Below are positions 6,793 through 31,356 of a stretch of DNA of 64,000 nt, one piece after another. Each line of letters starts with the position of its first letter. The stretch's first letter is position 1. The stretch spans positions 5,183 through 69,182 of the forward strand of contig CAZOOM010000001.1 in assembly GCA_964581425.1 (NCBI GenBank). Direction: 5' to 3'. The notes beneath the pieces were generated by a model. That model worked only from the letters and a program-made list of their open reading frames with translations. It searched no databases and was not told where the DNA came from. The DNA is from an uncultured bacterium (GTDB lineage: Bacteria; Omnitrophota; Omnitrophia; Omnitrophales; Aquincolibacteriaceae). The position numbers were made by a program, and so were the translations under genes.

Positions 6793-6820
6793 TCATTTTT
6801 GATGAAAGAGAATTGCCGCT

Positions 6821-8434: not shown

Positions 8435-8449
8435 TTTGAGAGGGAAGCT

Positions 8450-10600: not shown

Positions 10601-10632
10601 TAAGCCAGGATTTTAAAGTAGAGAAGCGTTGA

Positions 10633-11718: not shown

Positions 11719-11761
11719 TAAAGTCCGGATGAGATTCTCTATTCCGGAGGGGTCAGCAGAC

Positions 11762-13273: not shown

Positions 13274-13591
13274 GATCGCTAAAGGGCCTTTCGATAAAAA
13301 AAATTAAAATGATTTTTTTGCAAACAGGAAAATTCTATCACAATTCTTTACAAGGTCAACGAAGAAGCGCGATTTTTAGCCATATTTTTGCATTTGATAA
13401 ATCATCAAACCGAAAAAAATCAAAAAATGTGACCAATGTTAGTTTTTCTTTCGATTTTATGCCGCGAATTCAAAAAATCGATTTTTGAAACAACGAAATT
13501 TTTTTTAAAACTAAATTTCGAATGAGATGATGAAAAAATACAAAAGATGAAACGAGCTCATTTGGAAATGAAGAACAAACGAAAAGGCCAG

Positions 13592-14338
13592 TTAGCTTTT
13601 TGGGAGATTGACGCCGATAAAATTGCGAGCTTTTTTGATTTGCTCAGAAGTCAGCGTGTGTTGGAGGCCGGGAACAAGATCTAATTCTACAGGGATGCCA
13701 ATTTTTTTGCAGGTTTCTACAAATTCATTCGCTTTTTCTGAGCGCCCAGTATCATCTGTTCCAATCGAGATAAAAAAGGAAATCGGCATATAGATTTGTG
13801 GCTCATCGTAGTATTCAGCCCCGATGGCTGCTACTGAGCGCACCAGGCCGGGACGCCATAAAGCAAAACGAATGGCAAATTGTGCACCGGAGGAATAACC
13901 AACCAGGGAAAGTCTGTCAGTTTTAATGGCATGTTTTTTTGATATTTGATTCAGAATTTCAAGCAAAGCAGTTCCTGACCAGCTGGAAGGAAATTGGTAG
14001 CTTGTTTGATTGTCCCAATCCTTTTCATTATGCTCAAAACGTAGACTTAATACTGTTACATTATTTTTCGCAGCAAAAAGTAGCCAGTCTGGAGACACGC
14101 GGTCTTGTCCTGATGAAGTCAGTGCATTAACGACAATGACTACGGATTGCGGGGACGCTGAAAAAGAAGGAAGTCTGAAGTACTGGTATTTAACCGTCTC
14201 ACTTTTACCGTCATGCTCAACTTGAATTTTACCCTTGCTAACACCTAAAAATTGAATTGCGGTAATAAGGGCAAAAATAATAATGAGAAAAAGTAAAAAA
14301 AATTCTAAGGAGAGATTTTTATAAGCTCGAGTATTCAT
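13592..14338 (-). CDS. Membrane-anchored or secreted alpha/beta-hydrolase (esterase/lipase-like).
   Basis: N-terminal hydrophobic anchor FFLLFLIIIFALITAIQFL. Nucleophile elbow GYSSG (GxSxG). A His and Asp are positioned downstream. Confidence 0.6.
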   Translation of the reverse strand: MNTRAYKNLSLEFFLLFLIIIFALITAIQFLGVSKGKIQVEHDGKSETVKYQYFRLPSFSASPQSVVIVVNALTSSGQDRVSPDWLLFAAKNNVTVLSLRFEHNEKDWDNQTSYQFPSSWSGTALLEILNQISKKHAIKTDRLSLVGYSSGAQFAIRFALWRPGLVRSVAAIGAEYYDEPQIYMPISFFISIGTDDTGRSEKANEFVETCKKIGIPVELDLVPGLQHTLTSEQIKKARNFIGVNLPKS

Positions 14339-14373
14339 AGGAAAGTGTCTAGCATTCTAAGGGAGTTTAAACA

Positions 14374-14432
14374 AAAAGGCGAGGTCCGTTTGCATCCCGA
14401 TATTGGTTTGCTAGGGTTTCCTCGCCTTTTGG
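14374..14432 (-). terminator. Candidate intrinsic terminator downstream of gpmA.
   Basis: On the minus strand, AAAAGGCGAGG...CCTCGCC is followed by TTTTTGTTT. The loop is long, so the structure is uncertain. There is also a separate 8-bp palindrome GAGCTCGA/TCGAGCTC at about 14442-14463. Confidence 0.35.
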
Positions 14433-14547
14433 GTATGAGCTCGAATTGTCTCGAGCTCTAACTTTTTCAAGAGAAAGAACATAACTTCGTCTAATAAAAA
14501 AATAACCCAAGATCGAAAAGTTGTCAAGATGCATTCTGGAGATAATC

Positions 14548-15297
14548 TCAACCCTTTGATTTACCTTGGCTTGCAACTGCATTCATAGCGGCTTCAACTT
14601 TGCTTTGATCTCCCAAATAATAGTGACGAATGGGTTTAAGGCGCTCATCGAGTTCGTAAACTAAGGGAATTCCCGTGGGAATATTGAGATTGACGATATC
14701 GATTTCAGAAATATTGTCTAAATATTTGACGAGTGCTCTTAAGCTGTTGCCATGAGCGGCAATCACGACGCGTTTGCCCGAACGAATCGCTGGAACTATA
14801 GCTTGATTCCAACAAGACATGACGCGCGCGACAGTATCTTTCAAACATTCGGTTAATGGAATTTCTGTTTTTGATAAGGTCTGGTATCGTGGATCTTTAG
14901 CCGGATTTCTGGGATCGGAAATCTCGAGAGCAGGAGGCGGGATATCGTAGCTTCTCCGCCAGATTTTTACTTGGCCTTCCCCAAATTTGGTAGCCATTTC
15001 CGATTTATTAAGTCCTTGGAGAGATCCGTAGTGCCTTTCATTGAGGCGCCAGTCTTTGATCACCGGAATCCACAAAAGATCCATGGGATCTAGAGCAAGC
15101 CAAAGCGTGCGAATGGCGCGCTTCAAAAGCGATGTAAAGGCAATATCAAAAACATAACCATCTTTTTTTAGAAGTTGTCCAGCTTCTGTGGCTTCAGCAA
15201 TGCCTTTTTCAGAAAGATCCACATCGGTCCATCCCGTGAATCGATTTTCTTTGTTCCATTGACTTTCACCGTGACGCAGCAAAACAAGCTTGAACAT
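14548..15297 (-). CDS. gpmA: 2,3-bisphosphoglycerate-dependent phosphoglycerate mutase.
   Basis: [32 protein letters not shown] gives the catalytic His in RHGxxxWN. The gene is 249 aa. Confidence 0.9.
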
Positions 15298-15394
15298 AAA
15301 TCCTCCAACTCATGATGGTATAAAAACAATTACGAGTGCGATAGTTTACACGTGAAGCTGCAAGACGAAAATAGAAAAATGATGGGATGCTGTT

Positions 15395-16675
15395 TTAGGT
15401 CCGATGTAGCTCAGCTAGCAAATCATCTTCGGTTGGTAGTGACTTGGCAGCATCTGGAGCTTCCATTTTGGAAGTGGAAACTGGCTCAGGGGAAGGCGGC
15501 GGATCTTTAGGAAGGAGGGTGAAGTTTTTGGCTTCAAGAAAGCCTTTGGAATAGCCTCCGATTCTTTCTTGTAAAAAGACAAAATTAATTTCCCGGATAT
15601 CTGCCTTTTTTGAAAAATTCAAAGGAAAATCAAAAACTGCCCAATCTTTTTCAATGCGCTTTACTGAAAAGGCTCTCAAAACACCACTGGCTGATTTTAG
15701 CTCAATTCTGAAATTTTCAGGAAAACCGCGTTCATGTGGATTGCGTCTGGCCATGAATCGCAGAGTCTTAAATTGCGACATATCCAGGTCACGCGTTTTC
15801 ATATAAAGGCCTGAGAAGGAACCTACAGGGAATACGTCGTACTCCATTTCCAAATAAACTTCACCGCTTAAGGGGTCTAACTTGAATTCTCGATTGGCAT
15901 AGCCGATTTTGGGAGTGTAAAAAGTCCCGTGATCAAAAACATAATCAAACAGATTTCCAGCTTTTTTTGATAAATCCAGCTGAGCTGCTTCCGAAGCTGC
16001 AGATTTAGGAATCAGTTCGTAGGCTTCACTAATTTGACGCCAGTCGCTCTGGGAAATTTTTTCAGCAAAGGGTTTTGATGGAGACGACTGAATGACCACC
16101 TTTTCCATGGATCGGATAGTGCCGTAAAATTTGCCGCGAAGATCCGTTAAGCTGGCAGTTCCTTTTAACATCCCCAGAAAGCCTTCATTCATCCCTGTTT
16201 GAGTGGCTGCAAGCGTCATATTGTTTCGACTCACGGTTTTAACAGAGCCCACAATAATCTCCAGGGGATGAGGGGAAATAGAGTCTTCGGAGGCTGCAAA
16301 GAGCGTACCCTTGCGCAGTTCTGTGCGAAAAGCAGGTTCTGCATTTTTTGCTTTTTGAGCTTTTGGGAAATAAAGCTCAGATTCAGGTTTTAAACGCATA
16401 CGGCTGACATCAGGAATTTGGAAATCAACCTCGCCGTCTTTCCCTGTTTTTAAGATATCGCCTGGGTTAAAAGCATAACCTCGTGTGCCTTTGATCCAAA
16501 TGTTTTGCGAAGCAGAAAAAATTTGGGCGTCTCCAAAAACATTTTCAAGCAAATAACCCGGAAGAGATTCTGACGAGGTGTTCGAGTTTTGATTCAGATA
16601 AAAGACAGCGGCTAAAATTCCGAAAGAAATGATAAGCGCTGGAATGGAAATCGGAGATTTTGACTTGAGTTTCAT
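15395..16675 (-). CDS. Secreted or membrane-anchored protein with an N-terminal FecR-like domain and a C-terminal domain I do not recognise.
   Basis: Signal anchor MKLKSKSPISIPALIISFGILAAVFYL. The stretch IWIKGTRGYAFNPGDILKTGKDGEVDFQIPDVSRMRLKPESELYF fits the FecR/PF04773 pattern. The C-terminal tail is proline-rich. Confidence 0.5.
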   Translation of the reverse strand: MKLKSKSPISIPALIISFGILAAVFYLNQNSNTSSESLPGYLLENVFGDAQIFSASQNIWIKGTRGYAFNPGDILKTGKDGEVDFQIPDVSRMRLKPESELYFPKAQKAKNAEPAFRTELRKGTLFAASEDSISPHPLEIIVGSVKTVSRNNMTLAATQTGMNEGFLGMLKGTASLTDLRGKFYGTIRSMEKVVIQSSPSKPFAEKISQSDWRQISEAYELIPKSAASEAAQLDLSKKAGNLFDYVFDHGTFYTPKIGYANREFKLDPLSGEVYLEMEYDVFPVGSFSGLYMKTRDLDMSQFKTLRFMARRNPHERGFPENFRIELKSASGVLRAFSVKRIEKDWAVFDFPLNFSKKADIREINFVFLQERIGGYSKGFLEAKNFTLLPKDPPPSPEPVSTSKMEAPDAAKSLPTEDDLLAELHRT

Positions 16676-16842
16676 GCGCAGATTTTATCACAGCTTGAAA
16701 ATCATGCCCAATAGAAACCTGCTGGACATAAGGGTGATGGATTTTGACAACTTTTGATAAGATTTGCTCAATATTCGAGCGTTTTAATCGATAATCATAA
16801 CCAGCGGCTGGGTTTCCAGTAGTACAGCATAGGAGTCGTTTT

Positions 16843-17463
16843 ATGGATTTTGTGATTTTGTCGTTTGCTTCGATTTTGGTGATTGTTGATCCTGTGAGTT
16901 TGATACCGACCTTTCTTGCGATGACTCCCCGAAACACCGTTCCTGAGAGAATCCGGCTCGCTGGTTTGGCTTCGCTATTTACATTCATGATCTTGCTCAT
17001 AACAGCGATTGCTGGAGAAAGAATTTTCAAGATTTTCGGAATTACGCTTTCCGCTTTTGAAATTGCCGGAGGAGTTATTCTTTTGTTGATTGCACTCGAT
17101 ATGCTTCGAGGACATCAAACAGAGGTGCGGGCGAGTCAGGAGGAACAAGAGGAGGGAACGGAAAAAGATAATATCGCAGTCACCCCGCTTGCTATGCCGA
17201 TGCTGGCGGGCCCTGGAGCTATGACCACCGTCATTCTTCTTGCAAGCCGTGCCGAAACGTGGACGAATAAGGCTATTTTAGTAGGAAATATATTTATAAT
17301 TTCGATGCTGACTTTCGGGATTCTTTACTTTGCTGCGATTCGCTCATCACATATCAGTGTCATCGCACTTAAAATCACAAGCCGATTCATGGGGCTTATT
17401 TTATCTTCGATCGCAATTCAATTTATTTTAAATGGGATTCGAACAGCACGCCTCTTCGCTTGA
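16843..17463 (+). CDS. MarC-family (UPF0056) integral membrane protein.
   Basis: MDFVILSFASILVIVDPVSLIPTFLAMT and the six-TM layout are typical of MarC/SnatA. Confidence 0.8.
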   Translation: MDFVILSFASILVIVDPVSLIPTFLAMTPRNTVPERIRLAGLASLFTFMILLITAIAGERIFKIFGITLSAFEIAGGVILLLIALDMLRGHQTEVRASQEEQEEGTEKDNIAVTPLAMPMLAGPGAMTTVILLASRAETWTNKAILVGNIFIISMLTFGILYFAAIRSSHISVIALKITSRFMGLILSSIAIQFILNGIRTARLFA

Positions 17464-19899: not shown

Positions 19900-22800
19900 T
19901 TACTCATGTGCTCCAACCAGCTTTCTGGAAGGGGTTGATGGCTTCTCTGTTTTGACAGATGCAGCTTCAGGAACTTTCTTAAGCGGACTTTTTGAAATAT
20001 CACGTTTCACTTTTGTGATCTTTAAATTTCCGCGAGGTTTATCCAAGTCACTCGGAAGGACGAGCTGATTTCGGATTAACGTTGCGCCTGCAACCCCTTC
20101 AAAAGCCTGTCGCAGCATCCAGCCAGCGGCGCCGGTGTAACCATTCCAAATCATGCGGCCAAGTTCAAATGTAGTAAGAAAGTCAGCCGGCTGTTTGTTC
20201 GGTTGTCCGCCGTAAATTTCAATTTCCTGAGGTGTGACGTGAGCAATCGGAGAAACTTTTTGCCAGAGCCGATAAGCGGTTGCTCGGTACTCTTCAGCTT
20301 TTGCGTGATCCTTGCGCGCTTCAAATTCTTCAGCGAGTAATCTTGCGGCACGCACGAGCCACTGAACACCGTGACAGTACATTCCATTTTCACGGACACC
20401 TTCAGGATATTTGCTGCTCCGTCCGAGATAGGGTTTGCTGTCTTCGCGAAGCGCGGGCCATCCGAGAAGGATACAACTGCCGCGTTCGAGAACTTGAAGT
20501 GCGGTATTGAACACCGTAACCGCGCGTTCGAAATTCATGCCGGCCATGACAGCCCATGCCGCGGTCAAGGCATCGATTTCCCAAATGCCGCTGTCTTTGA
20601 CACCGATTTCCGTACCATCATCATGAAAGGCACGAAGATAGCGGTCGCCACGCCAAGTGGTTTCCAGACACTCTTTAAGTGCTTCCAGTTTTTGAACATA
20701 AAATGCTTTTTTCTGTGCGCCTTCTTTACGTTCAATAATAGGAACCATTTCTTTTAGGATGTAATAGAGGAAAAATCCGAGCCACACACTTTCACCGTGA
20801 CCTTCGCCTCCGATTTCATCGAGTCCGTCATTCCAGTCTCCGGTCCCCATTAACGGAAGACCGTGTTTGCCGGTGCGTTTTTTGATCACAAGATCAATCG
20901 AACGCATGCAATGTTTGTAAAGCGTATCACCGCGCGTGGTCCGATGATAAAGATGCCCCCAGCCGCCTTTATTTTTCGGAAGCTGAGCAAACGGAAACTC
21001 CGACATGACGTAAGATGCCATCTCATCCAGAATCGTGTCATCACCCGTCATGCGAATATATTCCACAGCAGCCCAAGCGAGCCAGAGCGGATTATCCGAA
21101 GCGTGTGAGCGGCAAGAAAATGCCGTGCGTCCGTCCACGAGCGTGAAGAACCAGTGAAACACATCGCCTTCTAAGAACTGCTGAGAGGCATGCAGAAGGA
21201 TTTGCTTCCGTGCCAATGCTGGATCCATCCAAATCAGATTGATCGTGTCCTGCAACTGATCGCGGAAACCGTAAGCGCCGCTGGTTTGATAAAAACCTTT
21301 GCGTGCCCAGATGCGTTCGGCGAGTGCCTGATATTTGAGCCAGTTTTGATAGCGGTCAAACTCAGGTTGATTGGTTTCCACTTTGGCGGATTCCATAAGC
21401 GCGAGCCACCACTGGCGCGTGCTCTCAAGACTCTTTTTCGCATTTTCCAGATTTTTATATTTTTGAACAATGCGGGCAGCATCTTTTTCAGAATCCGTTT
21501 GACCAAGTACCACAGCCAATGTGAATTCCTGATGCGACGGAATTTCAACCGAACCAAGGAAAGCAGCAATTTGTCCGGGATCCTTCGATTCTTTTTCATC
21601 CGGATGTCCCATTTCAACTAAGTAAGGGTGCGAGGGTCCGCGTCCGTCTCCAAAAAATCGTCCGCGTTTAGTTTCGACGAGTTCCGGATTCACAGACATT
21701 GAGGCAAAGGCCCAGCCATTTCTAAAAATATTTCTCGGGTTTGAGAAATAAAGTGCGTTCAAAGCCTTGTCATGTTTCGTGACAAGCGGGCCTGAACGTT
21801 CCGGCTGAAAGGAAAGAACCATCTGAAAATAAGGAGCCACACGAAGCCTGCGTGTTTGGTTTCCTGTATTTTTGATGCGCAAAAGGTAAATGCCAGTAGG
21901 TTCATCAGTAGGAACAAAAACCGTAAGCTCTGTGGACAAGGTTCCTTTAGACATGCGGAACACTGCTGTCCCGTCCACGCTGAAATCACAATCATGTTTG
22001 GCACTCACATCATTAATGGGGTGATACGTGGGAGAAAACCATTCCTTCTGATCTTGGTCATAAAGATAAATGGCCTCAGTAGGAATTTCTTTCGTGACCG
22101 TATCCGGCCAATCTGGCGTGAGACGATTTTGCTGTGAGTTTCCGTTACACGAAGTGTGAAGTCCGCGATTCGTGACCATGACTGAATGCGTGGGGTTTGA
22201 CATCCCGTGGTCAAAAGGCCGAGGAGTAAACGGAGTCAGCACGCGCATGGTATTGCCTTTATCCAGAAACTCAAAATAAGGTTGCGGAGTTTTGGGATAA
22301 ACTTCTCCGTGTCCGATTAAGAGGCTGCGTTTTTTGCCAGCCGCTGGCACGGATTTAGGAGCCAGAGGTTTTAAGAATTTTTGGATCAAATCAAGGGCAA
22401 TGCCTTTGTTTTTGGAGTAACCTATGACGAGTTTCATGCTCACAGATGCTTGAGCGCCTACCGGGGCATTGACCATCAAGCTTCCAATAGGGTCAAAGGT
22501 TGGGCAAGCGGGCGTGTCCTTTGCAGGCAGAAAATCCAAAGTCTCAAGCGCTCGAGGAGTCCAGACACTTTTCCCACGTCCGATGAAATCAACTCGGCCT
22601 GTGAGGAATCCTTCCGGAGCGAGATCCGAGGCCATGAATCCCATGGACTTCGTGCTCTTTTGCCAAGAAATAATGGCATTCGCTCCGCTCACATATTCCA
22701 TTTCAGGATAAAGACGAGCGTACTGAGTATGGAATCGGTCGTGCATCCAACCGTTTAAAACCCACTCAAGATACGAAACGACTTTGAGCTGCCGCGGTTT

Positions 22801-25800
22801 TTCTGTCAAATTCTCTACCGTGATATTCCAAAGCTCAACAGGGCTGTCCTGATCAGGCAGTCGGATTTCGATCGTGGATTTGACACCGTTGTGAGTTTGG
22901 GTGAGCTTTAAACTGTCTTCAACTTTTTCAACGCTCGCATTAGGAAAATATTCACGAGGACAGTTTCCCATTATAGGCCAGGATACAATTTTCCCTTTGG
23001 CCGCATCAGTCGTGTCGACGATGAAGAGAATGCGTCCCGTGGGATCCATAAAATCGTAGGATCGGCGGCTGATGTCGCACTCTTTTCCTGTGAGTTCACT
23101 GTAAACTTCTGCATTGGCTTTTGCGGTCACTTTATACTCCCGATTTGAGAGTTCGAAGGACGCAAGGGCCTTTTTGGCTGCGCGCTCGCGTGAAGCACGA
23201 ATCAAAAATGCGAAAAAGGAGCAAACCAAAATCGCTCCTGCCATTAGGAAAAACATTTGTCCTGCAGAGAGCGATTGAAGAAAAGCGAGCAGCCCTTTTC
23301 CTCGGTTTGCATTTTGCATGGCTTCCGAAGCACTCCAAACATATTCCCATTCAGCGCCGCGCGGGATGTAAAAAGGAATCAGAAGAGGCGCCCAAGTGGT
23401 AAAGCGTTTGACCCCTTCAGGGATGTAGCGCTGAGCCGCGGCAGGTCCAATAAATCGTGACAGTTTTTCGTCCAATCGATCCATGCCGATGAAGCTCAAA
23501 TTCACAAGCGTGGCCACGCGAAGTCCCATGTGGTCCATCCAAATCAGGATGCGGAGAAAATCAAAAGCCATCATCCAAAGGAAAACCTGAAGACTCCAGT
23601 TGTGGAAATCTGTCGGAGAAGAGGTTGTGTTATGCCAGATGGCAAACAGGGTGCGGATGGCTCCGTCCTGGTTGTACCAAGTCGGCTCGGGCATGACGCG
23701 TAAAAAGGTGGCAATAATCGGTGACATCCAAAGTCCCCAACGAAGGACGTAAATCAAGTTTTCGATTAACGAAGCAAATCCCGCTTTGGAAAAGAAAAAT
23801 TTGATTGGAGTCGTATCTTTTTCAAAAATGGATTGAAGAAAAACTTTGTTGATGGCAAAGAGCCAGGCTGCGATCGACCAGTTGATGACTCCGGCAAGAG
23901 ATTCGAGGAAAATCAATTTGACTCCGCCTGAGTAATGACCCAGATCAATGCGTCCCCATTTGTTTAAGAGGGGAATGGTGTTGTAGGCGATCGGATCAAA
24001 TCCTGAGCTTGTGTAGAGCTTGAATTTTTCTACAATCACAGGCACTTGAGCGGCATCAAGGTAAAACGCGACTGCACTTCCTACGAAAATCCCAAAAATG
24101 GAATCAGTGAAATAAAGTTTCCAAGTTTGAATTTTCCCTTGATGGCGAAGGCCGTAAAAAATATCCCGAAGAAGACTGACGCCTCCGGAGGCCAGAAGTC
24201 CCATCATCAAACCGAAAACAATTCGGTCCGGCATGGCTTTGGTGAACATTCCTTGAGAAAACATCACGGCAAATCCGTAGCCTGCGATCGCTCCGCGCAA
24301 ATACAACCAGCCATTTTGATAGCTGTAAGCTGTGCGTTCAAAAAAAGGAAGGCTGCCGTCAAAGGTTTCGATAATGGTTTTCAGGAATGGGAAAATCAAA
24401 GCACCGGCCAAAATCCCAATAAAGATGGGCGAGCTTGTCATGGCGCTGTGGACAAACGATAATTTGAGTGTGATTTGAAGCGCGTAAAGAATGGCCATCA
24501 AAATCGAGCTATAGGCAAATCCTTTGCGGGCACCGGTATCGATATTTTTGAAAATATTTTCTGGAGTTGGGGCCGCATTTTTTCCAGCGTCCAAGAAAAT
24601 ACCAGTTAAAAGATAAACTTCCCCCCAAAGACCTGCGAAAGAAAGACCGGTCGCGATGACTGCGATCACAGCTTGCAACAGAATCGGCAGGGAAGCCACG
24701 CCAGCTGATGATGCGAGTCCAGCAATCATCGGAGCTGCGGTGGCACCCAGAGAAACCCCAAGCAAAATCCAGTGGGCTTTTGCGGTTTTGAGGATTCTTC
24801 CTTTGGTCAGCATTCCAAAACTGTTCGTAACGATCTCATTAAAAAGAAAAAGTACAAGAGCGCGGCCCAGAAACTCCGCCATGGCAGGCCATGCCTTGGT
24901 AAGAGTCAGAGTAAGGCCCAATCCGAGTTTTTGAAGCAGGATGGGGTTTTCGAGCAAGAGCAGCCATCCAAAAAGGAATGGGGTCAGGACAATCATAAAA
25001 GCAGGTGTCTTTTTGAGATGTTTTCCGGAAGAGCACATGCTATTAGCATTAAAAATTTGATAAATCAAAAAGGCGATGCACGCGGTCAGCTTGTTGATTT
25101 GGAAAAGCTCGCTCCATCCTGCAGGCGCTTGTAAAAGATCAAGCCGGCTTGAAGCTACTGCCAGCATTCCGGTGAGAAAAATATTTTGGAACACTTCACC
25201 GCGACTGAGATGTTTTCCCGTCAAACGGATTTTTAGAAGTTCAGCAATTAATCCTCCTGCTAAAGCGACCGCAAGAAAGGTCCAACTGAAACCAACATCT
25301 AAAATACCAGAAGTGCCGAGTGAGTAAATCCGAATCGCAAGTGCGAGAATAAAAATCGTCATGGTTCCGGTAAAAAAATCTCTGCCCGAAAAGCCTTTGG
25401 GAGATTCTTTGGGCTTTTCCGGGGTCGCGGATTTGCTGGATTTAAGAACTAAGCCAGCGAACCACGAGAAAATAAGAGCGGTCAGGAGCACAAGTCCTAA
25501 TTTAAGAAATGTGGCATGACGCTCCACAAAAGTAGTTTGATTAAAATCAAAATCAAAGAAAAAAGAACCCATTACAGGCTTGATCTCTTCGGGCTTAGCA
25601 TTCATGGGCGGAACAATCATGGGGCTTACAACAAAAACAAATTCACGAAGTTCGCCAATCTTATTCCATCGGATAAATTCGCGCAGAGAATTCCACCCTG
25701 TTTTGAGCTGCAAAATGGGAATGATTTGGGTATCCAGGCTTCCCTTGACTTCAATTTTAACGGCTGCTTGGCGGGCATTTTGGTTTTCAGGAATTTTGAC

Positions 25801-27219
25801 ACCGACTCTGACAGCATCTGCGTTTGCTGGCTTGAGTCCTTCCGGAAATGTTTTGGACCACACACCTACCACGGTTCCCTGAGGAAGATTGTAGTCAAAT
25901 TTCCAAACATCTTTTTCGAGCGTTTCATCGTAAGCCACGGCAACATTGCCTGAAGAATTACCGATATTAAAAACGCCTTTTTCTCCAGCATCAAAAAGGG
26001 TATAGGCCGGAAGCGGTCCAGAGTTTTTCACTTCAGTGGATTTGCGTTTTACAAATTCGAGTGAAAAATCAAGAGTTCCTTTGGCTTCACTACCGGTGGT
26101 TTCAGGATTTAAAATTAAACTCACTTCTTTCAAGGCTGCAATCGAAGACCAATCAATGGATTGCTGAATCGAGTTCCATCCGGATTTAAGCTGGAGGGGG
26201 ATGGTTTGAGTTCCCTGGCTGCCTTTGATTTCAAGCTGAGTGGAAATGGATTTTGCCTGAGCGTCGTCCAAAAGACGAATTCCAAGCTTCACCGTATTGA
26301 TGACTTCACCGGTTAATGTTTCAGGATAGTCTTTGGTCCAAAGTTTGACAGATCCCTTTTGAGGAAGGACATAATCAAGTTCAATGACGTCTTTTCCCAT
26401 GGCTTCATCAAAAGTAGAAGTCACAGTGCCCTTGGAAGCTTCTCCAGCATCAGCGCCATTTTCTTTGGCATCAAGATGCGAGTAGGAAGTTTTCACTTGA
26501 GCAGGTTGCGCGGCAGGCATTTCAATGTTCGGAGTTTCAATCTTGGGGGCAATTTTTTCTACAACTTCGGTTGCCTCTTTGGTAGCCGCAGGAATGACAT
26601 CGGCAACTTTGGCTTTTACGGTTTTGACGATTGGTGCGCGAAAAGAAAGATCCGAGGTGAAATCTAAAGTCCCTTTGACAGTTTCTGTGGCGCTTTTCGG
26701 ACTGATGATAAAAACAATTTGATCCAAATTTCCAATCGTTGACCAATCAATCGAAGCCTGGGCATTGGACCATCCTGATCTCACAGAAACCGGTACCGAC
26801 TGTGTATTGACAGTACCTCGGATTTCCATAGCAATCGAGATTTGAGCCGCTTGGCTTGCTTCAAGGGTTTTGATTCCAGCTTTGAGAAGGTTTACACTTT
26901 CAGGTGTGACTGCAGCGGGAAAGTTTTTTGTCCAAACGACCAAAGATGAGTTCGGGGCCAATGTGTAATCCAGTTCGAGCACATCTTTGCGCGCAGACTC
27001 ATCATAAGTTGAAGTTAGAGTCCCCTTGGCCTCTCCCTTGATCACAACGCCATTTTCTTTGGCATCGAGAAGGGAATAGGTGGCGGTTTCAGCTGCTTGC
27101 AACATTCCAAGATGTGGAATGGCAAAGAGTCCGGCAGTCAAGATAACGGCTGCCAGCATGAGCGCGGAAAAGCGCTGATGAGATGCGATCGCTTGTTTAA
27201 GACGGGTCCATGACTTCAT
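19900..27219 (-). CDS. Giant multidomain membrane protein of about 2440 aa. It has a signal/TM, three tandem ~150-aa extracytoplasmic repeats, a polytopic membrane domain of about 850 aa, and a GH94 glycoside phosphorylase module made of two N-terminal beta-sandwich-like regions plus an (alpha/alpha)6 catalytic domain. It resembles a cyclic-beta-1,2-glucan-synthase C-terminal region.
   Basis: GH94 hallmarks are present: GAYGFRDQLQD and the catalytic GDWND (about 20826-20840 on the minus strand), plus YCHGVQWL. The three repeats each carry ...LDAKENG...KGT.TST.DE...KDV.ELDY.L......WTK..P........K.GI.......A.......EI.G...TQ..P...KSGWN.....IDWS.I. The membrane region (about 22950-25500) has at least 16 predicted helices. 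The likely start is ATG 27219 with an AAGGAA RBS. The track ORF begins at 27270. The C-terminus is a Lys/Pro-rich tail. Confidence 0.85.
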   Translation of the reverse strand: MKSWTRLKQAIASHQRFSALMLAAVILTAGLFAIPHLGMLQAAETATYSLLDAKENGVVIKGEAKGTLTSTYDESARKDVLELDYTLAPNSSLVVWTKNFPAAVTPESVNLLKAGIKTLEASQAAQISIAMEIRGTVNTQSVPVSVRSGWSNAQASIDWSTIGNLDQIVFIISPKSATETVKGTLDFTSDLSFRAPIVKTVKAKVADVIPAATKEATEVVEKIAPKIETPNIEMPAAQPAQVKTSYSHLDAKENGADAGEASKGTVTSTFDEAMGKDVIELDYVLPQKGSVKLWTKDYPETLTGEVINTVKLGIRLLDDAQAKSISTQLEIKGSQGTQTIPLQLKSGWNSIQQSIDWSSIAALKEVSLILNPETTGSEAKGTLDFSLEFVKRKSTEVKNSGPLPAYTLFDAGEKGVFNIGNSSGNVAVAYDETLEKDVWKFDYNLPQGTVVGVWSKTFPEGLKPANADAVRVGVKIPENQNARQAAVKIEVKGSLDTQIIPILQLKTGWNSLREFIRWNKIGELREFVFVVSPMIVPPMNAKPEEIKPVMGSFFFDFDFNQTTFVERHATFLKLGLVLLTALIFSWFAGLVLKSSKSATPEKPKESPKGFSGRDFFTGTMTIFILALAIRIYSLGTSGILDVGFSWTFLAVALAGGLIAELLKIRLTGKHLSRGEVFQNIFLTGMLAVASSRLDLLQAPAGWSELFQINKLTACIAFLIYQIFNANSMCSSGKHLKKTPAFMIVLTPFLFGWLLLLENPILLQKLGLGLTLTLTKAWPAMAEFLGRALVLFLFNEIVTNSFGMLTKGRILKTAKAHWILLGVSLGATAAPMIAGLASSAGVASLPILLQAVIAVIATGLSFAGLWGEVYLLTGIFLDAGKNAAPTPENIFKNIDTGARKGFAYSSILMAILYALQITLKLSFVHSAMTSSPIFIGILAGALIFPFLKTIIETFDGSLPFFERTAYSYQNGWLYLRGAIAGYGFAVMFSQGMFTKAMPDRIVFGLMMGLLASGGVSLLRDIFYGLRHQGKIQTWKLYFTDSIFGIFVGSAVAFYLDAAQVPVIVEKFKLYTSSGFDPIAYNTIPLLNKWGRIDLGHYSGGVKLIFLESLAGVINWSIAAWLFAINKVFLQSIFEKDTTPIKFFFSKAGFASLIENLIYVLRWGLWMSPIIATFLRVMPEPTWYNQDGAIRTLFAIWHNTTSSPTDFHNWSLQVFLWMMAFDFLRILIWMDHMGLRVATLVNLSFIGMDRLDEKLSRFIGPAAAQRYIPEGVKRFTTWAPLLIPFYIPRGAEWEYVWSASEAMQNANRGKGLLAFLQSLSAGQMFFLMAGAILVCSFFAFLIRASRERAAKKALASFELSNREYKVTAKANAEVYSELTGKECDISRRSYDFMDPTGRILFIVDTTDAAKGKIVSWPIMGNCPREYFPNASVEKVEDSLKLTQTHNGVKSTIEIRLPDQDSPVELWNITVENLTEKPRQLKVVSYLEWVLNGWMHDRFHTQYARLYPEMEYVSGANAIISWQKSTKSMGFMASDLAPEGFLTGRVDFIGRGKSVWTPRALETLDFLPAKDTPACPTFDPIGSLMVNAPVGAQASVSMKLVIGYSKNKGIALDLIQKFLKPLAPKSVPAAGKKRSLLIGHGEVYPKTPQPYFEFLDKGNTMRVLTPFTPRPFDHGMSNPTHSVMVTNRGLHTSCNGNSQQNRLTPDWPDTVTKEIPTEAIYLYDQDQKEWFSPTYHPINDVSAKHDCDFSVDGTAVFRMSKGTLSTELTVFVPTDEPTGIYLLRIKNTGNQTRRLRVAPYFQMVLSFQPERSGPLVTKHDKALNALYFSNPRNIFRNGWAFASMSVNPELVETKRGRFFGDGRGPSHPYLVEMGHPDEKESKDPGQIAAFLGSVEIPSHQEFTLAVVLGQTDSEKDAARIVQKYKNLENAKKSLESTRQWWLALMESAKVETNQPEFDRYQNWLKYQALAERIWARKGFYQTSGAYGFRDQLQDTINLIWMDPALARKQILLHASQQFLEGDVFHWFFTLVDGRTAFSCRSHASDNPLWLAWAAVEYIRMTGDDTILDEMASYVMSEFPFAQLPKNKGGWGHLYHRTTRGDTLYKHCMRSIDLVIKKRTGKHGLPLMGTGDWNDGLDEIGGEGHGESVWLGFFLYYILKEMVPIIERKEGAQKKAFYVQKLEALKECLETTWRGDRYLRAFHDDGTEIGVKDSGIWEIDALTAAWAVMAGMNFERAVTVFNTALQVLERGSCILLGWPALREDSKPYLGRSSKYPEGVRENGMYCHGVQWLVRAARLLAEEFEARKDHAKAEEYRATAYRLWQKVSPIAHVTPQEIEIYGGQPNKQPADFLTTFELGRMIWNGYTGAAGWMLRQAFEGVAGATLIRNQLVLPSDLDKPRGNLKITKVKRDISKSPLKKVPEAASVKTEKPSTPSRKLVGAHE
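25545..27087 (-). repeat. Three tandem ~150-aa protein-domain repeats inside the giant ORF. This is the extracytoplasmic N-terminal region. A carbohydrate-binding-module role is possible.
   Basis: Protein residues about 62-215, 262-410 and 425-575 align with each other at roughly 30-40% identity. DNA identity is low, so this is an old duplication. Confidence 0.6.
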
Positions 27220-27957
27220 AGGATGGTTCCTTTTCTTCAGTGGTTTTTTAAAACTTAGCAAACAAATCAAAAAAATGATTTCAAGTCATCATGATTTTAG
27301 GAAGGTCGCAATTTGTTTTTGAAATACGCATTCGATTGCTCAAAACTTTTTGCGAGACTATTTTATTTCTTTATTAAGAGCCCGAGTTAACCAAGAACAC
27401 GAATCCCTTAATTATTTTTTTTCGATTGAACACTCGCAGATTGCCTTGGAAATTTCAGGAAGTGGATCGCTTGGGAGAGCGTTCTAACCTGATGCTTGCC
27501 AAAGGCCTAAGCAGAGTTCCCATCCTAAAAGGCCAGATGAACTTTCCTATTATATCCATGACAGGCGGATAGGTAAAAATTTTTCTTGATCTTTTTCAAC
27601 CTAATAAAAGGTCGCTCCCCATTGGGGTCTCATTCCTTATGAAAGAAGATAAAGACTTCATGAAATTGATCAAGAATGCAAACAAATGGGCTTGGATGGT
27701 CACAATCAGAATACAACTGACTAGCGGGTACCCCTTAGGTCCCTTATGGATTAGGAGCCTGATCGGTGAAGAATCTCCTTTTGGTAATCATCCCTCTCTT
27801 TTGAGGTCAGCTGATCCGGGAAAAGCCCAATTTCGATATCGTAAGAATCTCCTTTGAGGCCTGTACTCATGGGTACGGAGCCTTGTCTGAGCAAACGGTC
27901 TGCGTAGAGTTCCTTTTTAAAGAATCCCGAGTGAGTAATAAAAGGATGAGGCGAGTA

Positions 27958-28389
27958 TCATGAAAAATGCTCAACTTGAATCATGTAAGCACCATTTTCA
28001 AGTTGAGGAAGTTTTGCAGAAAAATAGCCCTCAAAATCTACCGGAGCTTCCACTTGCTGCAGATGACCTGAAAAAACAACTTTACCTGAGGGTAGTCCTT
28101 TTAAGTGAAGAAGATCTATGACTTGTCCCGAGACATGCCACTCAGCAACCTTACCTTGAGGAGAGGGAGGTTTTTTCCATTGATATCCAGGCTCACCTGT
28201 AATCGGCTCTGGAGGTTTAATTTTTTCAAGACGCTGGGGCTTTGTATTTTCAATGACTTGTATTTGATCATTTCCATCTTTATCTTCCCAGCGACCGACT
28301 TCTGTACCATTTTCTTTGACAATATAAGTGGTTGCCAAAAAAAGGGGAGAAAAAAGCAAAAGGAGCAACAAAAAACGAATGTGATCCAT
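27958..28389 (-). CDS. Small secreted hypothetical protein.
   Basis: Signal peptide MDHIRFLLLLLLFSPLFLATT. It is 143 aa and has no domain I recognise. It lies upstream of the giant GH94 gene on the same strand. Confidence 0.5.
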   Translation of the reverse strand: MDHIRFLLLLLLFSPLFLATTYIVKENGTEVGRWEDKDGNDQIQVIENTKPQRLEKIKPPEPITGEPGYQWKKPPSPQGKVAEWHVSGQVIDLLHLKGLPSGKVVFSGHLQQVEAPVDFEGYFSAKLPQLENGAYMIQVEHFS

Positions 28390-28531
28390 GGATCGTTTTT
28401 TTTCTAATCAAGCGTGTGTCAATTTAGTTGTAGATATTACGACAAACAGGAAGCACTGACTAAGAGAAAATACCGAATGGTTTTTTGAAAAAAGGGGACT
28501 CTGAACAAGCCGTCCCCTTAAACGACAAGGT

Positions 28532-28906
28532 CTAGTCGCGATCGCGTCCGCGGCTAGAAAAGGATTTCTTGCGGTGTCCGCCGCCAAATCCGCCTCGGTG
28601 TTCGCGTCCAGGACGATCAAAGTGTCGTCCGCCGCCTCCACCACCATGACCAAATCCCCGATCACGCGGCCCTGAATCACGTCGGCCTTCATCAGGACGG
28701 CGATTGGGATCAAAGGGGCGAAAAGGCTTGGGAAAACGTCTTTCACCGCCGCGATGATCACGGTTATAAGAAGGGCGATCGCCTGATTGATGCATCAAGT
28801 TATCAAGCTTCTTTTCAATAAAAACCAACTGCTGCTGCATTTTCTTGAGAAGAGAGAGGACATCCGTTTCTTCTGCAGGTGCATTTTGTTCAAAATCATC
28901 GTTCAT
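28532..28906 (-). CDS. Arg/Gly-rich (RGG-like) disordered protein with an N-terminal coiled-coil segment. It may bind nucleic acid.
   Basis: N-terminus MNDDFEQNAPAEETDVLSLLKKMQQQLVFIEKKLDNL. Tail RGGERRFPKPFRPFDPNRRP...RGFGHGGGGGGRHFDRPGREHRGGFGGGHRKK. The overlapping ORF 28408..28761 in another frame is a GC-repeat shadow. Confidence 0.55.
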   Translation of the reverse strand: MNDDFEQNAPAEETDVLSLLKKMQQQLVFIEKKLDNLMHQSGDRPSYNRDHRGGERRFPKPFRPFDPNRRPDEGRRDSGPRDRGFGHGGGGGGRHFDRPGREHRGGFGGGHRKKSFSSRGRDRD

Positions 28907-29256
28907 AGTGAAACTCCTTATTTTGTTAAGATCCGTGCATCAAATGTGAAACACAAGAATGAAAACGGATGAAGAGCGATTTCAAATTTAAGCTAGTAGA
29001 TTAAGGGACAGCGCGCACCAACCAACCATCTTTTTTGGGGCGTGAAGAAATCTTCTTGAGGGAAGATTTAATATTGAGTTAGGAAATCAACTCAGAAATT
29101 ATCCTATTACTCGCGCTTTAAACAAGCGTCCCTAATTCGTCGCGAGCCTGTAGTATAAGGACTTTCTTCAAAAAGGAAAGGAATTCTTTGAGTTGGGGTT
29201 TTCGGGTTCATGAGGATCGTTCATTGATTAAAATTGGAAATAAATAGATTGTTTGC

Positions 29257-31356
29257 TTGATTGCCTTTACATACCTCTTTAAAATAGAGTGTCTTATGCA
29301 ACAAATGCTGACATTTGCGCGAAGACGCTCCCTTTTACTCCTTCTGTGTGTTTTTTTCGTTTGGCGGATGTGTTTTTTGCTGACTTCTCAACCCTTTCAT
29401 CTCTTTATTTTCCCTCATGAAGAGCTCTATCGCGGTGCCATTGCCAGAGACCTTGTAGAAGGGCTTCGCATGCCCTTTTTTCAATATCGTGCAGACGATT
29501 ATTCAGGGGGGTCGTTGGCAATCGGATTTCTCGTCTCTTTGTTTTTTCGAGGTTTAGGCTCAAGTCTATTAATCCTTAAACTGGTTCCTTTGTTTTTCTC
29601 CATGGGTGGGCTCGTTTTTTGGTATCTCCTGCTTAGCCGTTATCAGAGCGCTAAAACAGCCGTCTATTTTTCTTTGATCTATATTTTTGCTCCACTTGCC
29701 TTTGTACGCTATAGCGTCCTTCCCTTAGGAGATCACACAGAAACCATTTTTTTTACAGGATGCAGTCTTTTTTTGTTTCTTGAAATTGTGACAGAAAGAA
29801 ATAAATCCTGGGTTTATCCTGTTCTTTTGGGATTGGTTTCAGGACTAGCTTTATGGATTGCCTACATTTATTTCCTAACCATTCTGACTTTAGTTTTATT
29901 TGGTTGGGTTTATTATCGAAGAGCGCTTTTGTCACGTAAATTTCTTCTGGTTTGGGGTTCATTTTTTATCGGATTTTCTCCTTGGCTGATGGTGAATTTC
30001 TCAAACCACTTTTCGGGCTTTCGTATCCAAGAAGAGGATATTTGGAACTGTTTTCAGTGGTCTCATTTTGTCAGCCGTATATTTGACTTTAAAACCTTTG
30101 CTGTGACGCGATTCCTGACTTCTTTCGAGATTTATCATGTAATGGAAAAAATCCCTCAGTATAAAGTGATCCTATTTTACATCATCCTCTTTCTGGCGCC
30201 GGTTACAATGGGAAGCTTTTATTTTTTAAGAAAGAATCAGAAGGTGAGCCTGTTTCGCAAATGGCGTAAGCCGAATTTGGTTGTTTTGTCTTCAATTTAT
30301 TTTTTTATTTTTTGCTTTATCACTCAATGGACAAGTTTTATCAATCTCAGATATTACATTCCCACTCATCCGTTTATTTATTTTGTCGTGGCATATTTCG
30401 TGCGTTGGATTCAAAAAGAGCATCCGCGTGTACCCCTTCTTTTTTTTAGTGTCTTGATAAGCTCCGCTCTGTATTTTCAAGGCGCTCTTTTTTCTTGGAA
30501 AGATTTCGGATACGCGCTTCGAACGCCGGGTTATTCCTACCTGAATCTTGTGGACGTTCCAGTTTGCAGTGACGCATTGAAATGTTTGGAGGTTTACCAG
30601 AATTTTCAGAATCAACTTTCGATAGAAGAAAAAGGGGAGTTCCTCCGTATTGTTTCTGACAGAATGGCGCATCAGATCTCAGAGATGGAATGGAAACAAG
30701 AACTTATTTCTGTGGAAAATAAAATCCCTAAGTTTGCGGTTCCCTCTTTGTATCTGCGTTTAGGACATCGGTTTGGAACTGCGGAGAGTTGGAATTTAGA
30801 TAAAGGGCTTGCTGAATTTGATGATTTGAAAATTCTCAATCCTCAAAAATATGAGATCCTGTTTCGAGGATTTTTAGATGGATATTCTCAGCAAGAAATG
30901 AATGAGAAGGACTTGGCCTTCTTGGAGCTTGTTCCTTCGGGGTTGCCACCTGCTTTGATCCCTGATTATTTTCGAATGCGCGGCATTCAATGGGCTCGAC
31001 TCATCGAAAAACAATCCGGTCATTTCCGGGATTTTAGAAAACAGCTTCGAATTACTTCGCAGAATATGAATCAGAAAACGCAGCCTTTTTTTCTTCAGGG
31101 GGTTGGAGTGACCTTGTATGAGAAGTGGCTCTGGAAGCATTTGAGTCTTCGAAAGATAAAAAAACTTCCCTTAAATTTAGAGTATCCTGTGCTCCAAGGA
31201 ATGGGGATGGGAGCTGTCTTGCGTCCGACACCGCTTGGCTGGGCGCTTGCCGATGCTGTTGCAGAAGAGGTAAGAGGAGAGCGTAAAAGATTTGTCTATG
31301 AAGGAAAAAGTTTGGCCGAAAAATCTGTGGCTTTAATGCTGCAACCTATTTCATAA
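29257..31356 (+). CDS. GT-C fold membrane glycosyltransferase (ArnT/PMT, GT83/GT39-like) with a C-terminal soluble domain of about 270 aa.
   Basis: First extracytoplasmic loop carries HEELYRGAIARDLV. This matches the (D/E)E..Y..I.R..L motif of ArnT/PMT (DETRYAEISREML in ArnT). About 11 TM helices follow. The C-terminal 270 aa are hydrophilic. Confidence 0.6.
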   Translation: MIAFTYLFKIECLMQQMLTFARRRSLLLLLCVFFVWRMCFLLTSQPFHLFIFPHEELYRGAIARDLVEGLRMPFFQYRADDYSGGSLAIGFLVSLFFRGLGSSLLILKLVPLFFSMGGLVFWYLLLSRYQSAKTAVYFSLIYIFAPLAFVRYSVLPLGDHTETIFFTGCSLFLFLEIVTERNKSWVYPVLLGLVSGLALWIAYIYFLTILTLVLFGWVYYRRALLSRKFLLVWGSFFIGFSPWLMVNFSNHFSGFRIQEEDIWNCFQWSHFVSRIFDFKTFAVTRFLTSFEIYHVMEKIPQYKVILFYIILFLAPVTMGSFYFLRKNQKVSLFRKWRKPNLVVLSSIYFFIFCFITQWTSFINLRYYIPTHPFIYFVVAYFVRWIQKEHPRVPLLFFSVLISSALYFQGALFSWKDFGYALRTPGYSYLNLVDVPVCSDALKCLEVYQNFQNQLSIEEKGEFLRIVSDRMAHQISEMEWKQELISVENKIPKFAVPSLYLRLGHRFGTAESWNLDKGLAEFDDLKILNPQKYEILFRGFLDGYSQQEMNEKDLAFLELVPSGLPPALIPDYFRMRGIQWARLIEKQSGHFRDFRKQLRITSQNMNQKTQPFFLQGVGVTLYEKWLWKHLSLRKIKKLPLNLEYPVLQGMGMGAVLRPTPLGWALADAVAEEVRGERKRFVYEGKSLAEKSVALMLQPIS

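Follow-up and report, generated by a model that had tools for sequence, protein, structure and literature searches.

What does a single giant protein do that joins tandem repeats, a large membrane domain and a sugar phosphorylase? This question is raised by a locus of an uncultured member of the Omnitrophota (family Aquincolibacteriaceae; GenBank assembly GCA_964581425.1, contig CAZOOM010000001.1, positions 5,183 to 69,182 of the forward strand); "the window" below denotes the whole stretch of 64,000 nucleotides (nt) that was analysed. [quoted passage not shown] The ORF is present as claimed (the 2456 aa being counted from a TTG at 27270, a mechanical ORF start) and the three-part architecture is correct; the likeness to a synthase is the part that we revise. 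Our best reading is that of a membrane machine that would bind, translocate or process a beta-glucan with a cytoplasmic phosphorylase, and, more specifically, we give a probability of roughly 0.4 to a membrane-integrated beta-1,2-glucan phosphorylase of undescribed architecture, that is, a catabolic machine capturing, threading and phosphorolysing beta-1,2-glucan.

The true start codon is probably not the TTG but the ATG at 27219, since AAAGGAA is found 8-14 nt upstream of it and a typical signal peptide begins there, which would give the shorter and more likely product of 2439 aa. Residues are numbered below with the Met of this ATG as residue 1, and the features of the gene are as follows.

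19900..27219, minus strand: whole gene, 2439 codons from the probable start, plus the stop at 19900-19902
27094..27219, minus strand: putative signal peptide, residues 1-42 (sequence, and a hydropathy peak at residues 18-36)
26605..27081, minus strand: repeat 1, residues 47-205, predicted beta-sandwich resembling a carbohydrate-binding module (CBM) (43% identity to repeat 2, E 2e-49; matched by the repeat hidden Markov model)
26020..26481, minus strand: repeat 2, residues 247-400, predicted CBM-like beta-sandwich (the unit chosen for modelling)
25525..26004, minus strand: repeat 3, residues 406-565 (35-38% identity to repeats 1 and 2)
23185..25524, minus strand: polytopic all-helical membrane domain, residues 566-1345, with 17-19 hydrophobic helices
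23335..24402, minus strand: part of the membrane domain with the highest conservation, its core, residues 940-1295 (containing 124 of the 155 positions conserved at >=97% in 74 species)
22420..23151, minus strand: GH94 accessory subdomain, equivalent of Cgs GP1, residues 1357-1600 (alignment to 1543-1787 of Cgs chain 8rf9; first supersandwich stretch)
20035..22239, minus strand: GH94 supersandwich and (alpha/alpha)6 catalytic domain, equivalent of Cgs GP2-GP3, residues 1661-2395
21259-21261, minus strand: Asp of FRDQ, residue 1987
20827-20841, minus strand: GDWND, residues 2127-2131
19903..20034, minus strand: Lys/Pro/Ser-rich C-terminal tail, residues 2396-2439, poorly conserved

The C-terminal module is, judging from its domain matches and its active-site residues, a catalytically intact GH94 phosphorylase of the Cgs type, about 1085 aa in length. 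In Pfam, two stretches match the GH94 supersandwich (E 1.4e-66) and one matches the GH94 catalytic domain (E 4.8e-64), with 225 bits for PF06165 (cut-off 23) and 217 bits for PF17167 (cut-off 27), and the signature GAYGFRDQLQD is found at residues 1981-1991 (FRDQ at 1985-1988) with GDWND at 2127-2131. A complete C-terminal GH94 was claimed before, and the signatures on which this claim relied stand; the extent assigned to it (the last 1000 aa) was too short because the equivalent of the Cgs GP1 subdomain precedes the Pfam matches, and the GH94-related part begins at residue ~1357, ~15 residues past the last transmembrane helix. Specifically, residues 1357-1599 align to Cgs residues 1543-1787 (GP1), and residues 1665-2393 to Cgs residues 2050-2762 (GP2-GP3). 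The best match in the search of solved structures was Cgs, with cellobiose phosphorylases at ~1e-41, and the family profile scored 485 bits on the phosphorylase half (GP) of Cgs (E 4e-144) vs. 189 bits on cellobiose phosphorylases, while its match to the soluble 1,2-beta-oligoglucan phosphorylase 5H3Z was marginal (E 4e-5); the closest solved relative is, therefore, the phosphorylase half of Cgs/NdvB. The His of GMYCHGVQW and the Thr of YTGAAGW align with YTHAATW and YTGSAGW of Cgs, positions which we take to be those of the phosphate-site residues of cellobiose phosphorylase. In addition, D2393 and D2528, the Asp residues mutated to obtain an inactive Cgs GP (PMC10901819), align with the conserved Asp of FRDQ (D1987) and the catalytic Asp of GDWND here, and these are invariant in 13 diverse family members. 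Because the GH94 is of the Cgs type and the neighbours in related loci are GH144-like and GH189-like (see below), we tie the family to beta-1,2-glucan, and the module is presumably specific for the beta-1,2 linkage.

Is the protein then an ordinary Cgs? Its relatives go by 'cyclic beta-1,2-glucan synthetase' at JGI (at NCBI, by 'GH36-type glycosyl hydrolase domain-containing protein'), and the top solved-structure match is Cgs, as mentioned above. However, the similarity is restricted to Cgs residues ~1543-2781, i.e., the GP half. A GT84 domain (GT2-like, GT-A fold) with its Asp for binding of uridine diphosphate (UDP) and its QxxRW-type motif was not found by Pfam, by searches of the PDB or in the AlphaFold2 (AF2) model of the membrane region, and the GH189 cyclization domain (DUF3131 plus PF10091) was not found by Pfam at E<=1 over the full length of the protein or at E<=10 over residues 560-1359, the same two Pfam models readily picking up separate secreted neighbours in related loci. 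Cgs also carries a Rossmann-fold-like subdomain of ~166 aa between GP1 and GP2 (domain names and boundaries as in PMC10901819); this insert is missing here, with a linker of ~60 residues (1600-1660) in its place. Finally, the profile of the membrane domain found no match in Cgs at E<=10. These domain tests refute an ordinary Cgs, whose chance we consider vanishingly small, and the headline of the earlier note has to be given up: of the synthase, the GH94 half only is represented.

What, then, is the ~780-aa region between the repeats and the phosphorylase? Residues ~566-1345 are hydrophobic and all-helical, with 17-19 hydrophobic peaks, in agreement with the earlier description of the region upstream of GH94 as almost wholly hydrophobic helices, and the DSSP assignment of the AF2 model gives helices throughout with just two strands of 5-6 residues (one short hairpin). 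The model has a mean predicted local distance difference test (pLDDT) score of 68, being good over the first 500 residues and poor in parts beyond. The reported lack of a GT-A domain is borne out by Pfam, by the PDB searches and by this all-helical model. Specifically, no glycosyltransferase family of Pfam (GT-A/GT2/GT84) was detected at E<=1 over the whole protein or at E<=10 over residues 560-1359; the membrane region matched nothing in Pfam at E<=10 or in NCBIfam, and nothing among PDB sequences in single-sequence and profile searches; and Foldseek, with a best E of 0.33 and template modelling (TM) scores <=0.18, returned no fold relative. Accordingly, the domain showed no sequence or fold similarity to the known glycan polymerases and transporters considered (GT2 channel, GT-C, MOP/Wzx, ABC, MFS). 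An internal duplication or inverted repeat was not found when eight segments of the domain were aligned against each other with hhalign, the segments sharing a 'GKHL' turn motif alone (probability <=18%). The idea of a GT-C-like polymerase gains no support from these searches (no fold or motif match), and this candidate was rejected, a conserved acidic motif being absent from the first periplasmic loop.

The same domain is highly conserved. Across 74 species, 155 of its 780 positions are >=97% conserved, mostly in the core listed above (124 positions in residues 940-1295), with the motifs ETFDGS, RD, YLDxxQ, KWGRIDLG, VLRWGLWMSPII, TWYNQDGAIR, DHMGLRVATLVNLSF and KRFxTWxPLLIPFYxPRG. The motif YVLRWGLW (1157-1164), earlier viewed as a weak motif in a loop, falls instead within a predicted transmembrane helix and is strongly conserved, seven of its eight residues (VLRWGLW) being >=97% conserved in the 74 species. 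Invariant residues include 13 of the 22 Trp, 13 of the 28 Arg and 8 of the 19 Asp, vs. 20% of all membrane-domain positions, and these would lie on both faces and within helices. W1088, W1114, W1119, W1161, W1164, W1181, R1160, D1185, D1229 and R1234 are among them. Because Trp, Arg and Asp are over-represented among the invariant residues, we view the domain as an active site or a substrate path; that is, on the evidence of its conservation it is a functional element and not a mere anchor. A simple membrane anchor was rejected as a candidate, the domain being too large and too conserved for such a role.

At the other end of the protein, a basic n-region and a hydrophobic core, FSALMLAAVILTAGLFAI, are followed by …GMLQA|AE, which looks like a cleavable signal peptide rather than the "signal anchor" previously assigned; the peptide would presumably be cleaved and the following part exported. 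The three tandem repeats, ~155 aa each, are 35-43% identical in pairwise comparisons (E 1e-33 to 2e-49, pairwise BLASTP), and the third passes straight into the first transmembrane helix. An AF2 model of one repeat, built on 15 repeats, is an 11-strand beta-sandwich (pLDDT 92.4) that shows the jelly-roll fold of type-B CBMs and has its nearest fold counterparts among CBMs, CBM11 (1V0A) and a beta-1,2-glucan enzyme's N-domain being two of them. At the sequence level, the repeats matched nothing in Pfam at E<=10 (CBM_11 included) or in NCBIfam, the repeat profile matched no PDB sequence and retrieved a single fragment, and nothing more, in a word-index protein search, and when the repeats were compared by hhalign with the CBM11-like proteins encoded in related loci, the probability was 1%, which is not significant. 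Thus, the repeats taken earlier for beta-sandwich or carbohydrate-binding modules are real tandem repeats, modelled as CBM-like beta-sandwiches; they are CBM-like by fold only, and it is their modelled fold that suggests glycan binding. Lys/Arg-rich segments come after both the first helix of the membrane domain and the last one; along with the signal peptide, these segments fit a topology in which the repeats would be periplasmic and the GH94 module cytoplasmic.

How widespread is this arrangement? The membrane-domain profile identified 552 clusters at E<=1e-3 among 1.84 billion representatives, and the best 150 of the 552 all appear to be members or fragments of the same family. At least 223 species-representative genomes encode a relative; the carriers are mostly Omnitrophota, with others among Planctomycetota, Elusimicrobiota, Auribacterota, FCPU426 and one metagenome-assembled genome (MAG) of Chlamydiota, while a repeat-less form is present in a Beijerinckiaceae MAG. 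The survey of homologues proposed earlier showed that the architecture is shared across several phyla: 57 of the 61 complete ORFs have the same order, i.e., 0-5 repeats, the membrane domain, GP1 and GP2-3, and the membrane domain is always accompanied by GH94 in the complete ORFs examined. Since the number of repeats varies from 0 to 5 and the membrane domain and GH94 are constant, the latter two form the constant core, with the repeats as accessories. An exact look-up of the window protein returned no record of an identical protein.

This conservation also bears on whether the fusion is an artefact of chimeric assembly or of a read-through between genes. A few relatives are indeed split or truncated (in the related loci L029, L048, L066, L074 and L080), but the split cases look like MAG frameshifts with the two halves adjacent and in order, and the uninterrupted order in the 57 ORFs comes from independent assemblies of several phyla, alongside hundreds of protein clusters. 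An assembly chimera or a pseudogene is ruled out by this conservation, and an artefact of any such kind strikes us as hardly credible. As for individual members, the gene in L066, from a complete Omnitrophota chromosome (CP070780.1), is split into 9216-9956 and 9971-15448, the upstream ORF of 246 aa consisting of a signal peptide and one repeat, which is either a frameshift or a true two-gene form; the same locus carries a separate soluble GH94 of 790 aa (2888-5260). In the Beijerinckiaceae MAG (L081/L082), the last 8 nt of the repeat-less gene are shared with the gene that follows it, which encodes an amine-oxidase- or phytoene-desaturase-like flavoprotein (15516-17114), an association not observed elsewhere among the loci. 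The gene in the window has a G+C content of 0.45-0.49 (window 20001-26000) vs. 0.41-0.43 in the surrounding 10 kb on each side, which could reflect protein composition or horizontal origin.

Which substrate and which direction do the neighbouring genes suggest? In one clade of relatives the following order recurs, with all genes on the same strand.

Gene 1: solute-binding protein (CUT1-type)
Gene 2: OmpR-type regulator
Gene 3: PAS kinase
Gene 4: small CBM11-like protein
Gene 5: ~765-aa secreted protein (GH144-like)
Gene 6: FecR/TPR protein
Gene 7: family gene
Gene 8: ~688-aa secreted protein (GH189-like)
Gene 9: two ATP-binding cassette (ABC) permeases
Gene 10: CBM11-like protein
Gene 11: ROK kinase

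Of 70 related loci, 15 carry an SGL-clan gene of >=600 aa no more than four ORFs away, ABC permeases are present in 12, and 10 combine the two; an SGL-clan protein is the product of the next same-strand gene in 9 loci, and one locus adds an extra soluble GH94. The secreted neighbour upstream has its best matches in GH144-type beta-1,2-glucanases (8xul, 2e-66; CpSGL, 2e-40) and the one downstream (L013) in the GH189 domain of T. italicus CGS (8wy1, 5e-41) and the cyclase region of Cgs (3e-39); both neighbours bear signal peptides, and the glucanases next to the relatives carry CBM11-type modules of their own. The ~688-aa proteins, of secreted or lipoprotein type, lie directly downstream in L013, L016, L020, L053, L066 and L077 (e.g., L013:15584-17647) and combine a CBM11-like module with a GH189-related domain. 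Secreted stand-alone homologues of the Cgs cyclization domain (GH189) form a large group whose function is not known (PMC11842490). If the topology proposed above holds, two of the three catalytic modules of Cgs would have homologues in these loci, placed in separate compartments, with the phosphorylase inside and the cyclase-like enzyme outside. Viewed against the synthase interpretation, these neighbours make up a set for uptake and degradation (GH144-like glucanase, binding protein, ABC permeases, ROK kinase and two-component system).

The window copy stands by itself, among genes for a fatty-acid desaturase, ferritin, an Rrf2 regulator, MarC, histidine kinases and others, and neither GH144/GH189 nor ABC or other carbohydrate genes were found within the 64-kb window. 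At 15395-16675 (-), 3.2 kb downstream of the gene and separated from it by four unrelated genes, a FecR-domain protein (Pfam E 7e-5) of 426 aa, anchored in the membrane, is encoded, residues 234-384 of which are homologous to the small secreted CBM11-like proteins of the operons (hhalign 91%, E 1e-6). It may be a remnant partner, since the FecR/TPR protein of the relatives is encoded directly upstream of the family gene.

Under the catabolic reading that we favour, the signal peptide would place the three CBM11-like repeats in the periplasm, where they would capture linear beta-1,2-glucan chains that, in the relatives, may be made or linearised by the secreted GH144-like and GH189-like enzymes. 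The ~780-aa domain of 17-19 helices would be the conduit, which the chain would enter with its non-reducing end first, and GH94, ~15 residues past the last helix on the cytoplasmic side, would remove glucose units singly with phosphate, releasing glucose-1-phosphate; phosphorolysis would thereby make the inward movement of the chain effectively irreversible. The conduit role is one that we purely infer. As to direction, glycoside phosphorylases are degradative in vivo because cellular phosphate is greatly above glucose-1-phosphate; for this reason, and because the relatives' loci hold a binding protein, permeases, a ROK kinase and a sensor-regulator pair, we consider a phosphorolytic (catabolic) direction the more plausible. 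The GP domain of Cgs, which itself works phosphorolytically (PMC10901819), is a further reason.

As the main alternative, the protein might be a synthase and exporter of periplasmic beta-1,2-glucan that is independent of known glycosyltransferases, with either GH94 polymerising from glucose-1-phosphate or the membrane domain acting as a new glycosyltransferase and GH94 trimming as in Cgs. In such a case, the membrane domain would be the exit through which the chain is extruded, the periplasmic repeats would hold it as BcsB holds cellulose, and the secreted GH189-like and GH144-like enzymes of the relatives would cyclise or trim the product, in parallel to OpgH with OpgG/D or to a Cgs split across the membrane. 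Consistent with this alternative, the GH94 module is specifically of the Cgs type, the layout mirrors that of BcsA-BcsB, and the signal peptides of the SGL-clan proteins encoded next to the family gene in the 9 loci (the L013 member being the cyclization-domain match) imply that the periplasm contains linear beta-1,2-glucan. Thermodynamically, however, cellular phosphate/glucose-1-phosphate ratios disfavour elongation by a phosphorylase. In vitro, GH94 beta-1,2-oligoglucan phosphorylases do form long beta-1,2-glucans from glucose-1-phosphate (PMC11842490). The automatic annotation as 'cyclic beta-1,2-glucan synthetase' also points to synthesis but derives from the GH94 part only, and neither a signature of GT-A, GT-B or GT-C nor a match to their folds was found in the membrane domain by the searches described above. 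Further, the conserved loci of the relatives hold the CUT1-type binding protein with its permeases, the ROK kinase and the extra soluble GH94, and no genes for the supply of sugar nucleotides or glucose-1-phosphate were seen in them. Hence, we regard synthesis and export as quite unlikely.

It is also conceivable that the protein is a membrane-tethered oligoglucan phosphorylase whose membrane domain senses or gates, docks to the ABC importer or has an unrelated activity (lipid or ion handling). The ABC importer of the same loci could supply a cytoplasmic GH94; in the relatives the family gene adjoins genes for FecR-domain proteins and for a two-component system, and the window has its own FecR plus CBM11-like protein 3.2 kb away, which hints at signalling. 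On the other hand, the 155 invariant positions, the charges within helices and the 13 invariant Trp exceed what anchoring or docking would need, the membrane domain never occurs without GH94 in the complete ORFs examined, and the constancy of this pair against a repeat number of 0-5 places the core function in the pair itself. Taken together, a tether or sensor of this kind appears unlikely to us.

Several observations weigh against the catabolic reading too. Loci with an oligosaccharide ABC importer have no obvious need of a second import route, and the adjacent secreted homologue of the Cgs cyclase is equally consistent with biosynthesis. It is probably a single clade that supplies the operon evidence, so that one evolutionary event may lie behind it, and the window copy itself stands without a glucanase or ABC gene within 64 kb. 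By Pfam, PDB profile and hhalign, none of the CBM families is significantly related in sequence to the repeats; pore formation by the membrane domain is without direct support; the model of this domain is moderate (pLDDT 68) and falls below 50 in parts of the conserved core; and the count of 17-19 helices, uncertain in the C-terminal third, allows either parity, of which a cytoplasmic GH94 demands one. Considering conduction independently of its direction, we give close to an even chance to the domain being a polysaccharide conduit of a new class, one partnered by a phosphorylase and not by an ATPase or a glycosyltransferase, as either an ATP-free importer or, running in reverse, a synthase/exporter free of nucleotide sugars.

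A few other observations were made along the window and the related loci. Divergent from the gene, at 29257-31356 (+), a 699-aa protein is encoded with ~400 N-terminal aa of hydrophobic helices and a soluble C-terminal part; it matched no Pfam family at E<=0.1 and resembles, by eye, a lipid-linked-sugar glycosyltransferase (GT-C type). The ~2 kb upstream of the gene (27271-29256) hold short ORFs only and no Rfam match, the whole window being likewise without one; the ORFs include a 143-aa protein with a signal peptide (27958-28389, -) and a 124-aa Arg/Gly-rich basic protein (28532-28906, -). Three consecutive genes at 2062-10600 (+) encode, in this order, a hybrid histidine kinase of 1576 aa (its domains being a periplasmic one of the phosphonate-binding type, dCache, several of the PAS type and a receiver), an outer-membrane porin of the alginate-export type (6821-8434, +) and a CHASE4 hybrid kinase (8450-10600, +). 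In the Planctomycetota loci L068, L072, L074, L076, L078 and L080, a secreted protein of ~700-1180 aa recurs as the first to third gene downstream; its shared part has no Pfam domain, and one member has a SASA carbohydrate-esterase domain.

What do these results mean more broadly? The family is real, widespread and mis-annotated, and sets a catalytic module that is already known within a membrane architecture not described before. As suspected earlier, the arrangement is not a described family: there is no Pfam or NCBIfam model and no solved relative, and no description of GH94 fused to such a membrane domain was found in the open-access literature searched. Since the family is devoid of two of the three Cgs catalytic modules, inferring cyclic glucans from it in Omnitrophota, Planctomycetota and Elusimicrobiota is unsound. 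A conserved domain of 780 aa with no known relative, always welded to a phosphorylase, is a candidate for a new route of a polysaccharide across the membrane; if true, a glycoside phosphorylase would here be coupled to the translocation of a glycan across a membrane, the first such case to be described, and, if the direction is import, it would amount to an ATP-free, energy-conserving uptake of polymer that yields one glucose-1-phosphate per step. Beta-1,2-glucan is a polymer of many bacteria, and the family, together with the operon of one clade, points to it as a substrate or product in these little-understood and mostly uncultured phyla. The secreted homologues of the Cgs cyclization domain (GH189) among the relatives' neighbours should be of interest to enzymology as well.

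Finally, how does the protein compare with known systems? With CBM11 (1V0A), the repeats share a likeness of fold, although the sequence model of that family is unmatched. The pairing of a membrane protein with adjacently encoded periplasmic enzymes active on beta-1,2-glucan recalls OpgH with OpgG/OpgD; however, OpgH is a GT2 and OpgG/D are GH186, neither of which was detected here, and the neighbours of the relatives are GH144-like and GH189-like instead. With BcsA-BcsB the parallel is an analogy only and consists of catalysis in the cytoplasm on the non-reducing chain end, a domain spanning the membrane, and beta-sandwich modules for carbohydrate binding in the periplasm, as predicted for the window protein. 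BcsA has a GT2 domain, uses UDP-glucose and exports its product, whereas the protein described here shows no homology to it and has a phosphorylase, an unrelated membrane fold and, likely, an inward direction. The 1,2-beta-oligoglucan phosphorylase (SOGP) of Lachnoclostridium phytofermentans (5H3Z) is also a GH94 with an extra N-terminal subdomain, and one clade of relatives (10-15 of the 70 related loci, the window not included) resembles SOGP/SGL gene clusters in having a GH144-type glucanase, a binding protein and ABC permeases (PMC11842490); the difference is that SOGP is a soluble cytoplasmic enzyme of ~1100 aa, whereas the GH94 here is fused to a membrane domain in all complete members. 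The closest system is Cgs itself, with which the window protein shares a homologous GP1-GP3 phosphorylase half, including the Asp residues that, when mutated, leave Cgs GP inactive, and the general form of a giant inner-membrane protein with GH94 on the cytoplasmic side (the side being a prediction for the window protein). In contrast to Cgs, the window protein lacks the Cgs N-terminal domain, GT84, GH189 and the Rossmann-like insert; it has in their place a putative signal peptide, three repeats that are CBM-like and would be periplasmic, and an unrelated domain of ~780 aa with 17-19 helices. The homologue of the cyclase is encoded apart from it in the relatives, as a protein that is secreted.

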